64,000 nucleotides of DNA. Source: SAR324 cluster bacterium. Its GTDB lineage: Bacteria; SAR324; NAC60-12. This document shows positions 16,862 through 18,918 of this stretch, in pieces. Positions within the stretch are counted from its first letter, which is position 1, and each line of letters starts with the position of its first letter. The stretch is from assembly GCA_015232315.1 (NCBI GenBank), contig JADFZZ010000021.1:2006-66005 (forward strand). Reading direction: 5' to 3'. The notes under the pieces are model-generated. The model had not been told where the DNA came from. It did no database searches and saw only the letters and a program-made list of their open reading frames with translations. Made by a program: the position numbers and the translations under genes.

Positions 16862-18277
16862 TCAGGAATGAATAAGCTGTTGTCGATCCACTTTACCATT
16901 TGCCAGCAGTGGTAAGGATTTGACCAGAATAATTTGATCTGGAATGGCATTTCTGGATAAAAGGTCAAAACATTCGGTTCGAATATTTTTTTCCGTCATT
17001 TCAAGGTTTTTGGAAAGGACACAATAGGCTACAAGGTTTTTTCCACGTTGGCTTTCTCCTTTGGAAACCACAACCGCTGAATCTATTCCAGCAATTGTTT
17101 CAAGGGCTTTTTCCACATCAGCAAAGAACACCAGCAGTCCATCCCGATTAACACTATGATCACATCTTCCCAGAACTTCTATCTGCTGTTCCTGCCAGAT
17201 TCTACCAAAATCCTTTGTCCTGAACCAGCCTTCCCGCAGTTCCTGTCCCAAATCAATGGGGCCTCCATTTTCATCAACGTATCCTTCAAAACCAGATTGA
17301 TGGCGGCACCAAAGCTCGCCAATGTCTGTGGATTCCGCAATTTTTTCCATACGCATTTGAACATTCGGCATTGGTGTTCCTGCTGTTTTCGCACGAAATT
17401 CGAAGGATGTATCAGGGCTGGATGCCGCTATCGCGCCCATTTCGGTACTGCCATACAACTGGACCAAACGACCGCAAAGCGCTTCATACTGGCTGAAAAC
17501 CTCACCTCTGAACCGATCTCCCGCAGTGACGGTTAGTTTATAGGTTCTTGGAGACTTGCGGCCTTTCACTAAAGTTTCGCAGAAAATAGGAGTCATGAAA
17601 ACGACATTGGGGTTAAATTCCTTTTCCCGTTGCAGGTATCGAAGAATATTCGCGCCCTTTTGCAGGTCAATGGACGCGTTAACGGCGACTGCCGGCAAAA
17701 AGGCGGCACCCAAACCATACATATGAAAAACAGGAACCGGGATCGCGATTCGATCATTGCTGTCAAGCTCCAGTCTTCGCACACAATTGAGTACATTTTC
17801 CTGTAGTTTCGTATGCGCATGAACCGCCATTTTAGGGGAGCCTGTGCTTCCTGAAGTACGCATATAAAGTTTTTGGACACCGGCATGAGTTGTTCCGTTT
17901 TTTCCTTCATTGGGAATAACGCGTAAAAATCGTTCAGGATTTAAATAATCAGTTTGTGTCTGAGCAGGAACACTTTCGGTTCTAAGCCGATAGTGACAGA
18001 ACCCGGGAAGGGACAATTTAAGGGAGGTTTGAGGAATTAACAGAAAGCTGTAGCCTTTTTCCAACAGGTACAAAAGAACCAGTGCGCCCGGTAAAGAATT
18101 TTCACATTCAAAAGCCAGACAAGCGCTATGGTTAATATTTTTTTCTGTCAAACAGGTTTCGATTTTGTCAAAGATGCCCGGAATTTCGTGATACGTGCAT
18201 TGAGACACTCCATCCATCAGCATGTTTGACCGCGAGTCTAAAGTGTCTGCAAATTGGCCAATGAACTTCATTTTCAT
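16862..18277 (-). CDS. Stand-alone adenylate-forming enzyme (aryl/acyl-CoA ligase or free-standing A domain). There is no carrier domain.
   Basis: Motifs MRTSGSTGSPKMAV (A3), LYGSTEMG (A5) and LPLLANGKVDRQQL (A10). The track ORF starts with TTG at 18301. The likely start is the ATG at 18277 (MKMKFIGQ), which is preceded by GGGGA. Confidence 0.8.
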   Translation of the reverse strand: MKMKFIGQFADTLDSRSNMLMDGVSQCTYHEIPGIFDKIETCLTEKNINHSACLAFECENSLPGALVLLYLLEKGYSFLLIPQTSLKLSLPGFCHYRLRTESVPAQTQTDYLNPERFLRVIPNEGKNGTTHAGVQKLYMRTSGSTGSPKMAVHAHTKLQENVLNCVRRLELDSNDRIAIPVPVFHMYGLGAAFLPAVAVNASIDLQKGANILRYLQREKEFNPNVVFMTPIFCETLVKGRKSPRTYKLTVTAGDRFRGEVFSQYEALCGRLVQLYGSTEMGAIAASSPDTSFEFRAKTAGTPMPNVQMRMEKIAESTDIGELWCRHQSGFEGYVDENGGPIDLGQELREGWFRTKDFGRIWQEQQIEVLGRCDHSVNRDGLLVFFADVEKALETIAGIDSAVVVSKGESQRGKNLVAYCVLSKNLEMTEKNIRTECFDLLSRNAIPDQIILVKSLPLLANGKVDRQQLIHS

Positions 18278-18351
18278 ATTTCCCCATTCACAATAAAACA
18301 AACCTACTTCCTGTGTTATTAACTCATGTTCCGTGTATGACTCTTGCTGGA

Positions 18352-18918
18352 CTAGAAGGAGCTTTCAGGAAATTTTTCTGTAATCATCATAACGGGTTGA
18401 TGATTCGAAAAAACCCGATAGGTACGAGAGAGCAGTTTGTCTGTTTTTTTAACTTTGAAATAAGCTGAAAAGTCTCCGGCATCATGCAGATCATATGAAA
18501 TGATTTCTTTAAATGTTTCTGTTTTGTGTTCTTTCCAAAGTTTGCCAATGGGGACATGAGAATGGATGAGTTGTGCTCTAAATTTTTCTTCAACCCGTTC
18601 AAGAACTATGGTGGATTCCGCATAAAGCCAATGACTACAGCTTGTTTTCCCCTGAAGCAGGATCTTCCGTTGCATAATTTCAGTGTCTTTGTTGATTTCT
18701 AAAGGCGAAATACTCGTTGTGGCCAAGAGGATTTCCTCTGATAATTTAACAACACCGATGGGTTCGTTTAAAAACGCTTCTAAAATGTTGGTTAACGTCC
18801 CGTCCGCAATCAATAAAATTCTTTGAAATGGGCTCAACCTATCTAAATCAATCTGGCTGTTTTCCAGAGAGTTCTTTGAAAACTCTTCAGCCATGGTCAG
18901 GATGCGTTTTATCTGCAT
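18352..18918 (-). CDS. Chorismate pyruvate-lyase (UbiC/DUF98 family)-like protein.
   Basis: 188 aa. Matches the UbiC-family pattern: LSPFQRILLIADGTLTNILEAF near the N-terminus and RTYRVFSNHQPVMMITEKFP near the C-terminus. AAGGA RBS. Family assignment is from memory of UbiC motifs. Moderate confidence. Confidence 0.5.
   Translation of the reverse strand: MQIKRILTMAEEFSKNSLENSQIDLDRLSPFQRILLIADGTLTNILEAFLNEPIGVVKLSEEILLATTSISPLEINKDTEIMQRKILLQGKTSCSHWLYAESTIVLERVEEKFRAQLIHSHVPIGKLWKEHKTETFKEIISYDLHDAGDFSAYFKVKKTDKLLSRTYRVFSNHQPVMMITEKFPESSF

Follow-up and report, generated by a model that had tools for sequence, protein, structure and literature searches.

We analyzed a stretch of 64,000 nucleotides from a SAR324 cluster bacterium (GCA_015232315.1, contig JADFZZ010000021.1, positions 2,006 to 66,005), hereafter called the window, in which the genes of a predicted chorismate pyruvate-lyase and of a free-standing ANL ligase lie just upstream of the gene of a hybrid megasynthase. 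An original prediction made from this DNA was that the lyase and the ligase supply an aryl starter unit to the megasynthase. Our analysis points elsewhere. The two proteins are most likely members of a conserved nine-part pathway and not a starter-unit kit for the megasynthase, as judged from the comparison of the operon with related loci. Three results led us to disfavour the starter-supply proposal: the megasynthase has a loading module of its own, the ligase is tied to a free carrier protein, and the cassette to which both belong occurs elsewhere without any megasynthase. Taken jointly, we consider it fairly likely that the predicted lyase makes 4-hydroxybenzoate and that the partner served by the ligase is the free carrier, not the megasynthase.

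The lyase, the ligase and the free carrier

The operon is on the minus strand and starts, in the 5' to 3' direction, with the sulfotransferase ST1 of the Sulfotransfer_1 family (21368-22267; PF00685, E-value 3.1e-11), followed by a free-standing carrier protein of 87 amino acids (aa) (21090-21353; PF00550, E-value 3.4e-12), a HemN-like (class C) radical SAM enzyme with Radical_SAM and HemN_C domains (19760-21103), and the sulfotransferase ST2 of the Sulfotransfer_2 family (19072-19785; PF03567, E-value 4.2e-18). Then come the chorismate pyruvate-lyase family protein (18352-18918, 188 aa; PF01947), the free ligase (16862-18277, 471 aa; AMP-binding and AMP-binding_C), and the megasynthase (4551-16808, 4085 aa), whose domains were delimited with Pfam and by sequence inspection. 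The last two genes encode a class-III (omega-type) aminotransferase (3165-4514; PF00202, 316 bits) and a free-standing thioester reductase (1987-3168; TIGR01746, 317 bits for a cutoff of 213). The original prediction had placed the open reading frame of the lyase directly upstream of that of a ligase co-directional with the megasynthase, and this was borne out. All three genes are on the minus strand, with gaps of 50-74 bp between lyase and ligase and of 53 bp between ligase and megasynthase. The stop codon of the aminotransferase gene overlaps the start of the reductase gene, and these two genes, which directly follow the terminal condensation domain of the megasynthase, are translationally coupled. 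A scan for promoters and terminators revealed no convincing terminator inside the operon, and Rfam and tRNA scans of the 64-kb window were empty. The order of lyase, ligase, and megasynthase is identical in a SAR324 metagenome-assembled genome (MAG) that matches the window at 96-99% identity.

The small protein encoded at 18352-18918 is probably a chorismate lyase, judging by its profile match and its predicted fold. It matches PF01947 (Chorismate pyruvate-lyase Rv2949c-like) with 66 bits for a cutoff of 22 (E-value 4.6e-18), over profile positions 1-142 of 149. It has no match to the PF04345 (UbiC) profile, even at E-values up to 5, and precomputed matches to PF04345 exist for a few of its relatives (P0022, P0042, P0073, P0074, and P0094). 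Given the strong match to the sister family PF01947, the missing PF04345 match does not in our view refute the assignment. Hence, of the UbiC-like chorismate lyase that had been proposed for this gene, the chorismate-lyase family and fold stand, while membership of PF04345 does not. The AlphaFold model of the lyase, computed with 18 homologues, has a pLDDT of 84 and the chorismate-lyase/UTRA fold. A fold search with this model retrieved the DUF98 protein 2nwi as the best match (TM-score 0.88), with UbiC (1g1b) ranking lower (E-value 9e-6, TM-score 0.57-0.64). Since MAFFT misaligned the E. coli UbiC sequence (taken from NC_000913), we relied on this fold search and on a profile comparison with hhalign. 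The latter alignment, weak when taken alone (E-value 0.06), places R83 and E180 of the lyase at Arg76 and Glu155 of UbiC, which hold the product in UbiC structures. Both residues are invariant among the 18 aligned members of the family.

This family is large, with 668 matches, and was found in 204 genomes among the GTDB representatives. The lyase scored 44.7 bits against the model of the cyanobacterial housekeeping lyase (NF037993), far below its equivalog cutoff of 175, and its orthologues at 50-74% identity occur in secondary-metabolite settings. It is 49% identical to a homologue in Hormoscilla sp. GUM202, hs_bmp6, whose gene adjoins those of two P450s, an FMO-type halogenase, and a sulfotransferase. 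The protein hs_bmp6 is the chorismate lyase of the hs_bmp cluster, which makes polybrominated diphenyl ethers (PBDE) (PMC6520454). The lyase of the window, hs_bmp6, and the marine Bmp6 are of the same subfamily, and each is a dedicated lyase in a secondary-metabolite cluster that encodes a sulfotransferase. The bmp pathway differs in that free 4-hydroxybenzoate is brominated and coupled by a P450, with no ligase, carrier, or polyketide synthase (PKS). From its identity to hs_bmp6 and the two conserved residues, the lyase of the window likely supplies 4-hydroxybenzoate from chorismate.

The longest open reading frame of the ligase spans 16862-18301. The family consensus opens with MKFI, and translation of the ligase probably begins at one of two ATG codons, at 18277 or 18271 (MKMKFIG), resulting in a protein of 471 or 469 aa. 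It matches AMP-binding (E-value 1.7e-27) and AMP-binding_C (E-value 4.4e-8) and is devoid of a PP-binding domain. Searches with the ligase returned 702 family matches at 35-96% identity. The motifs conserved in the family are TSGSTGxPK, FHMYGLGA, YGSTE, T-K-D, and GKVDR. In the 18 aligned members, the ANL core is intact throughout (18/18 for TSGSTGSPK, YGSTE, T-K-D, and GKVDR, including the A10 lysine). Two invariant core motifs are unusual: A7 is T-K-D, not T-G-D, and A8, in the hinge region, reads GRCDHSVNRDGLLV. The N-terminal 140 residues or so barely match the AMP-binding profile across the family. The structural model of the ligase (pLDDT 84) shows a complete two-domain fold.

No specificity code exists for this ligase family. 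The best sequence matches of the core are feruloyl-CoA synthetase, McbA, benzoate-, 4-coumarate-, and 4-chlorobenzoate-CoA ligases, MenE, and PqsA. The neighbours of the structural model are MatB, oxalyl-CoA synthetases, MenE, 4-chlorobenzoyl-CoA ligase (TM-score 0.75), McbA, benzoate ligases, AuaEII, and EntE, and no long-chain fatty-acid ligase is present among the top 50. The nearest solved relatives of the ligase are therefore aryl or small-acid ligases (feruloyl, McbA, benzoate, 4-chlorobenzoate, MenE, anthranilate, MatB, and oxalyl), at only 16-20% identity, and not long-chain fatty-acid ligases. This speaks against an enzyme restricted to aliphatic acids, an outcome that the original prediction had named as fatal to an aryl role. 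The NCBIfam matches, all of them far below the cutoffs, and the source annotations point the other way, since the top matches and the annotations alike read "long-chain fatty acid-CoA ligase".

The free carrier protein bears a GLDS phosphopantetheine-attachment motif and is encoded three genes upstream of the lyase-ligase pair in the same operon. To put a number on this pairing, we used the 37 non-redundant loci that encode a full-length ligase. A carrier homologue is present in 28. In 21 of these it is no more than 400 bp away from the ligase, and the other 7 have it at a different place of the locus. Three of the 9 remaining loci are truncated contigs. This recurrent pairing makes the free 87-aa carrier the probable acceptor of the ligase product. 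The ligase had been called carrier-less, which is correct for the protein, since it contains no carrier domain, but not for its function, since the free carrier at 21090-21353 had been overlooked. Among the more distant members of the family (35-45% identity), the loci L098, L105, and L110 contain triads of ligase, carrier, and thioester reductase. Such triads resemble a carboxylic acid reductase (CAR) divided over three proteins, and the ligase of the window is most likely the adenylation component of such a split, CAR-like branch, if gene neighbourhood is a guide.

The cassette in other genomes

To study the distribution of the operon, the proteins of the window were searched with BLAST against all open reading frames of 80 genome loci seeded by the lyase and of metagenome loci seeded by the ligase. 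The closest arrangement is in Deltaproteobacteria bacterium TL4, which encodes ST1, carrier, radical SAM enzyme, ST2, lyase, and ligase at 68-87% identity, and where no PKS or non-ribosomal peptide synthetase (NRPS) gene was called within 10 kb on either side of the cassette. The cassette also occurs without any megasynthase in Aphanizomenon/Dolichospermum, Trichodesmium, and Beggiatoaceae. Its genes were found at 42-65% identity in Scytonema, Dolichospermum, Aphanizomenon, Trichodesmium, Xenococcus, Spirulina, and others, and look-ups of cluster members showed that the cyanobacterial cassettes are abundant in data from Aphanizomenon/Dolichospermum and Trichodesmium. Orthologues of ST2 (54-84% identity) adjoin the lyase in most cassette loci, and orthologues of ST1 (40-68% identity) are present in cassette loci as well. 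A search of the literature on chorismate lyase, sulfotransferase, and HemN-like radical SAM enzymes in cyanobacteria returned nothing relevant that links them.

The cyanobacterial cassettes have additional genes, which encode a third sulfotransferase, oxygenases resembling Asp/Arg hydroxylases, a thiamine diphosphate (ThDP) enzyme, an APS kinase, a sulfatase, an aminotransferase, and a protein made of reductase, condensation, and carrier domains (R-C-T). The aminotransferase of the window is 61-71% identical to those of the cyanobacterial loci. Its free reductase and the R domain of the cyanobacterial R-C-T protein share 51% identity, and R domains are 50-54% identical across cassette loci. 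The R-C-T protein, which lacks an adenylation domain, is exemplified by Dolichospermum planctonicum NIES-80 (L022, 14101-17031) and has about 44 orthologues. It is conserved in the cyanobacterial versions of the cassette, and its C domain shares 37% identity with the one that ends the megasynthase. The ThDP enzyme, the third sulfotransferase, the hydroxylases, and the APS kinase were all missing when the window was searched with tblastn. Hence, the window holds a reduced version of the cassette. By these identities, the condensation domain of the cassette is the one that has become, in the window, the last domain of a PKS.

Other loci show the cassette in different states. In a second SAR324 locus (L087), it lies directly upstream of an A-PCP protein and a KS-AT protein. 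In Candidatus Parabeggiatoa (L084-L086 and L033, around 9785-10885), an intact lyase gene (68% identity) lies between short fragments of the ST2 (59%) and ligase (39%) genes. This locus appears, from these remnants, to be a decayed cassette of which the lyase is the sole survivor.

Divergent from the operon, on the plus strand at 22682-26593, lie the genes of an unknown protein of 175 aa, of an anaerobic sulfatase-maturing radical SAM enzyme (TIGR03942, 404 bits for a cutoff of 349), and of a sulfatase (PF00884). The same genes adjoin the cassette in TL4 (L001) and in a Desulfobacteraceae MAG (L038), and the Dolichospermum locus, too, encodes a sulfatase. The conservation of the set beside the cassette suggests a cycle of sulfation and desulfation, in which this set is, on the evidence of gene neighbourhood, the probable desulfation partner of the pathway.

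The radical SAM gene comes after the ligase-carrier pair in many loci. The enzyme scores 194-213 bits against the ChuW, HemW, and HemN models, and its matches in the PDB are HemN (1olt, 116 bits) and the class C methyltransferase NocN (9p2u, 74 bits). It is probably a C-methyltransferase acting on the carrier-bound aryl unit, a role we infer from its class and its neighbours. The closest analogy known to us is nosiheptide biosynthesis, where a free ligase (NosI), a free carrier (NosJ), and a class C radical SAM methyltransferase (NosN) handle 3-methylindolic acid for a thiopeptide. The window resembles this trio, and the nocathiacin system of NocN, in that its ANL ligase and its carrier are likewise proteins of their own, accompanied by a HemN-like radical SAM enzyme. 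The likeness is one of part types, and the similarity between NocN and the radical SAM enzyme of the window is modest.

The megasynthase and the proposed pathway

The megasynthase comprises, from its N-terminus, a relic resembling the C-terminal subdomain of adenylation domains (Asub), a keto-acid adenylation domain (A), a ketoreductase (KR), an acyl carrier protein (ACP), the domains KS, AT, DH, KR, MT, and ACP, and a condensation domain (C). The loading module (aa 104-1384, minus strand, 12657-16499) aligns end to end with the A-KR-T module of StsA (6ULW, 842 bits), including the linker region between KR and T. Its A domain matches McyG (4R0M) with 625-688 bits, whereas it matches the fatty acyl-AMP ligases (FAAL) 3PBK of E. 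coli and 3KXW with only 154-157 bits. Since StsA and McyG far outscore the FAALs and a KR domain separates the A domain from the carrier, we discarded the FAAL that had originally been assigned to the megasynthase. Selection of keto acids of the StsA type involves a Gly-Met motif and a hydrophobic residue in the place of Asp235 (PMC7923214, PMC11253843). Both features are kept here, with Gly-Met in AFGMSE and Val at the Asp235 position in DHVGAIV. Hence the module resembles StsA over its whole length and McyG in its A domain. It differs from StsA in that what follows it is a PKS module, where StsA heads a depsipeptide NRPS, and in that it is preceded by the relic. The latter covers about 100 residues (aa ~14-105, around 16490-16770 of the window, minus strand) and has lost the catalytic lysine (PLTDDGQLDD for PLTxNGKxDR).

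By this likeness, an alpha-keto acid is most likely what the loading module activates and then, on the first ACP, reduces to a hydroxy acid. The substrate is possibly an aromatic keto acid, such as an arylpyruvate. The pocket sequence is overall nearer to McyG than to StsA, but the five published contact residues of McyG are also conserved in StsA, so that pocket residues do not separate aromatic from aliphatic keto acids. Because this complete A-KR-carrier module is its own, the megasynthase primes itself. At the other end, the terminal C domain (aa 3640-4085, minus strand, 4554-5891; PF00668, 314 bits) is followed in the protein by no carrier, thioesterase, or reductase, and an outside nucleophile is therefore needed.

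We favour a model that joins these parts in one route, although the model as a whole, in which every step is read from sequence, falls slightly short of an even chance in our estimation. The PF01947 lyase would convert chorismate to 4-hydroxybenzoate, which the free ligase would adenylate and load onto the free carrier. The HemN-like radical SAM enzyme would modify the tethered ring, probably by C-methylation. The free thioester reductase would then release the carrier-bound unit as an aldehyde, and the class-III aminotransferase would convert it to a hydroxybenzylamine. In parallel, the megasynthase would prime itself with an alpha-keto acid, possibly an arylpyruvate, yielding an alpha-hydroxy acid, and would add one ketide unit processed by KR, DH, and MT. 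The terminal condensation domain would off-load this chain onto the amine, which would thereby be acylated. ST1 and ST2 would sulfate hydroxyls, and the neighbouring sulfatase, with its maturase, could take sulfate off again.

Several observations weigh against this model. The motif of the terminal C domain, HHIVMDV at aa 3776, is HHxxxDV and not HHxxxDG. Its nucleophile could instead be a guanidino-amine, made by a locus at 42.8-48.6 kb, or a carrier-bound acceptor. The radical SAM enzyme narrowly clears the cutoff of the HemW model (207.6 for 205.4), so that its role as a methyltransferase is tentative. None of the 702 matches of the ligase family is characterised. Ligase-carrier pairs occur without a nearby lyase in L088, L090, and the members of the family at 35-45% identity, which implies that the substrate of the family is not always 4-hydroxybenzoate. 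Finally, cyanobacterial loci hold the free carrier plus the T domain of the R-C-T protein, which the model in its simple form leaves unexplained.

The alternative that survives best concerns the order of the last steps. The terminal C domain might join the chain to the phenol, or to a previously introduced amine, of a unit still tethered to the free carrier, after which the reductase and the aminotransferase would release the whole molecule, as an aldehyde and then a terminal amine. That the genes for aminotransferase and reductase come right behind the terminal C domain would suit this order, as would the cyanobacterial R-C-T fusion, which suggests that C and R share one carrier-bound species. 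There is also no T domain after the C domain in the window, which makes the free carrier a natural acceptor. Yet formation of a phenolic ester by a C domain is unusual, the triads without a C domain (L105 and L110) suggest that the reductase acts on a simple acyl-carrier, and the cyanobacterial loci have a free carrier besides the T domain of the R-C-T protein. We think this order of events unlikely, though worth keeping in mind.

The window might also make two products, with the cassette giving a small sulfated aryl metabolite and the megasynthase chain being off-loaded onto a guanidino-amine. The genes for such an amine would be those at 42845-48619 on the plus strand, which encode an A-PCP-R protein resembling MxcG, a GntE-like transaminase (NF041362, 703 bits for a cutoff of 525), and an amidinotransferase (SxtG/AGAT/StrB1, 150-178 bits) that has no match in Pfam. 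This set has everything for making and amidinating a diamine, agmatine-like amines are known substrates of some terminal C domains, and TL4 has the cassette alone. The specificity code of the A-PCP-R protein, read by eye, matched no assignable substrate. On the other hand, the set is 24 kb away and on the opposite strand, and the C domain of the megasynthase is 37% identical to the one fused with the cassette reductase in cyanobacteria. Homologues of the amidinotransferase (33-48% identity) lie within the cassette loci of Scytonema (L002) and Thioploca (L069), which suggests a single pathway. From its gene content and these homologues, the set is possibly a route to a guanidino-amine linked to the cassette, but two separate products seem to us quite unlikely.

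This brings us back to starter supply, in which the ligase would deliver hydroxybenzoate from the lyase to the megasynthase, either onto its first ACP or through the free carrier to the KS. The succession of the three genes with such short gaps argues for it, as does the second SAR324 locus, L087, where the cassette is directly upstream of A-PCP and KS-AT. PF01947 is moreover the family of Rv2949c, and the arrangement resembles Rv2949c/FadD22/Pks15-1. In the biosynthesis of mycobacterial phenolic glycolipids, Rv2949c acts with FadD22, which has its own aryl carrier domain and gives the PKS (Pks15/1) its starter. The window is similar in that a PF01947 lyase would supply 4-hydroxybenzoate and an ANL enzyme would load a carrier beside a PKS. 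In contrast to the mycobacterial route, the ligase and the carrier are here two proteins, whose conserved companions are a reductase, an aminotransferase, a radical SAM enzyme, and sulfotransferases, and the PKS has its own keto-acid loading module. The completeness of this A-KR-carrier module, the A-PCP that L087 has of its own, the company that the ligase family keeps with free carrier and reductase rather than with PKS genes, and the cassettes without PKS in TL4 and cyanobacteria lead us to regard starter supply as very unlikely.

That the two genes are incidental neighbours, with a UbiC-type housekeeping lyase for quinone synthesis and a fatty-acid ligase, is hardly credible: the sub-threshold NCBIfam matches and source annotations of the ligase would agree with it, but the lyase gene lies inside a tight operon, has its 50-74% identical orthologues in secondary-metabolite contexts and falls well short of the cutoff of the cyanobacterial housekeeping model, no UbiA-type prenyltransferase turned up in the open reading frames of the window that were scanned, and long-chain ligases are absent from the top 50 structural neighbours of the ligase.

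Known relatives, neighbouring genes and significance

The favoured model, with its carrier-bound hydroxybenzoate and amine, has precedents for several of its parts. Routes made of a CAR (an A-T-R enzyme) and an omega-transaminase, and the transamination that comes after reductive release in alkaloid-type polyketides, resemble the window, where adenylation, carrier, TIGR01746 reductase, and class-III aminotransferase functions are co-conserved. The difference is that the three functions of CAR are here on separate proteins, and that in cyanobacteria R is fused N-terminally to C and T, which is an unusual order.

A second resemblance concerns the loci L023, L055, L071, and L080, where the genes after that of a lyase homologue (49-56% identity) encode a ligase, a DAHP synthase, and a C-domain protein. 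More generally, aryl-acid-type ligases are frequent neighbours of the lyase family. The arrangement of the four loci resembles the ambigol cluster (Ab5-Ab9) of Fischerella, with its chorismate lyase, stand-alone A domain, DAHP synthase, and carrier/C. The presence of a DAHP synthase with the lyase homologue in these four loci ties the lyase family to shikimate-derived chemistry. In contrast to the window, their ligase is only about 26% identical to ours and they lack the set of radical SAM enzyme, reductase, aminotransferase, and sulfotransferase. The claim that lyase and ligase form a recurring arrangement for aryl supply thus holds for these four loci, but with a ligase that is far from the one studied here. 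The window itself encodes a DAHP synthase of the AroF/G/H type (55104-56258; TIGR00034, 508 bits for a cutoff of 173), which is 49-54% identical to those of the four loci. As the original prediction had it, this gene is real but its link to the operon is weak: it lies 37 kb away, beyond an IS4/5 transposase, and beside YceD and PlsX. Given this distance, the insertion sequence, and the adjoining housekeeping genes, we rejected it as a part of the pathway. It is probably a housekeeping gene unrelated to the operon.

Aeruginoguanidines contain a sulfated hydroxyphenyl-propanolamine unit. With its lyase, ligase, carrier, reductase, ThDP enzyme, and aminotransferase, the full cyanobacterial cassette would, in a comparison of gene content, fit such a unit, which is a tentative lead. 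The agd cluster for aeruginoguanidine in Microcystis encodes an Arg-activating NRPS, a prenyltransferase, three sulfotransferases, and a sulfatase (PMC12371840). The cyanobacterial cassettes are similar in the genes they hold, with three sulfotransferases, a sulfatase, a nearby NRPS with an N-methyltransferase domain, and sometimes an amidinotransferase. We found no orthologue from Microcystis among the matches listed, which were the best 120 of each search (including the one with the R-C-T protein) and 8 sampled clusters. The window is further from agd than these cassettes, since it has two sulfotransferases and a sulfatase, and tblastn found neither the ThDP enzyme nor the third sulfotransferase nor the hydroxylases. 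No prenyltransferase or Arg NRPS is present among its annotated open reading frames.

The rest of the window holds genes of diverse types. Between the two biosynthetic sets are encoded a leucine-rich-repeat protein of 497 aa (26743-28236, plus strand) and a HEAT-repeat protein of 1249 aa (33944-37693, minus strand), and the latter is followed by two ABC transporter genes at 37690-40882. The block of DAHP synthase, YceD, and PlsX is flanked by the IS4/5-family transposase (53284-54162, minus strand) and a phage-type integrase fragment of 189 aa (60392-60961, minus strand). At 61808-63478 on the minus strand, a domain resembling the formylglycine-generating enzyme (FGE-sulfatase) is fused to N-terminal regions resembling CsgG/LpoB; this is the second protein of a sulfatase-maturation type in the window. 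P-type (E1-E2) ATPases and DUF697 proteins are encoded near the cassette, in the window (48800-50863 and 32491-33120) and in L084, L087, and L089, i.e., in Parabeggiatoa, another SAR324 contig, and a contig of a Kentron symbiont. This recurrence may be due to chance or to a link with transport or resistance.

The logic of a dedicated chorismate lyase with an ANL ligase and a carrier is known from mycobacterial phenolic glycolipids and ambigol-type clusters, and lyases of this subfamily are known from PBDE clusters. What is new is the combination of a split CAR with a transaminase, of a class C radical SAM enzyme with a carrier-bound benzoate, of sulfotransferases with a sulfatase, and of a PKS joined to all this through a terminal C domain. 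It is possible, albeit doubtful, that we are dealing with an undescribed cassette, spread across phyla, that makes sulfated hydroxybenzyl- or hydroxyphenylpropanol-amines and that was joined in this SAR324 bacterium to a keto-acid-primed PKS by a captured condensation domain. If true, the pathway would make a new class of sulfated aryl-amide hybrids subject to a cycle of sulfation and desulfation reminiscent of pro-drugs, with building blocks made in bloom-forming cyanobacteria, giant sulfur bacteria, and SAR324.

The pair of lyase and ligase is itself ordinary, but it marks a widespread and apparently uncharacterised pathway of sulfated aryl compounds. Its hosts are ecologically important, as they include the Aphanizomenon and Dolichospermum of blooms, Trichodesmium, Beggiatoaceae, Kentron symbionts, and SAR324. 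Identification of the product would give a function to hundreds of proteins annotated as "fatty-acid ligase" or "DUF98". It might also bring to light a group of related sulfated aromatic amines, and the operon illustrates one way of coupling such a cassette to a PKS, by means of a terminal condensation domain.

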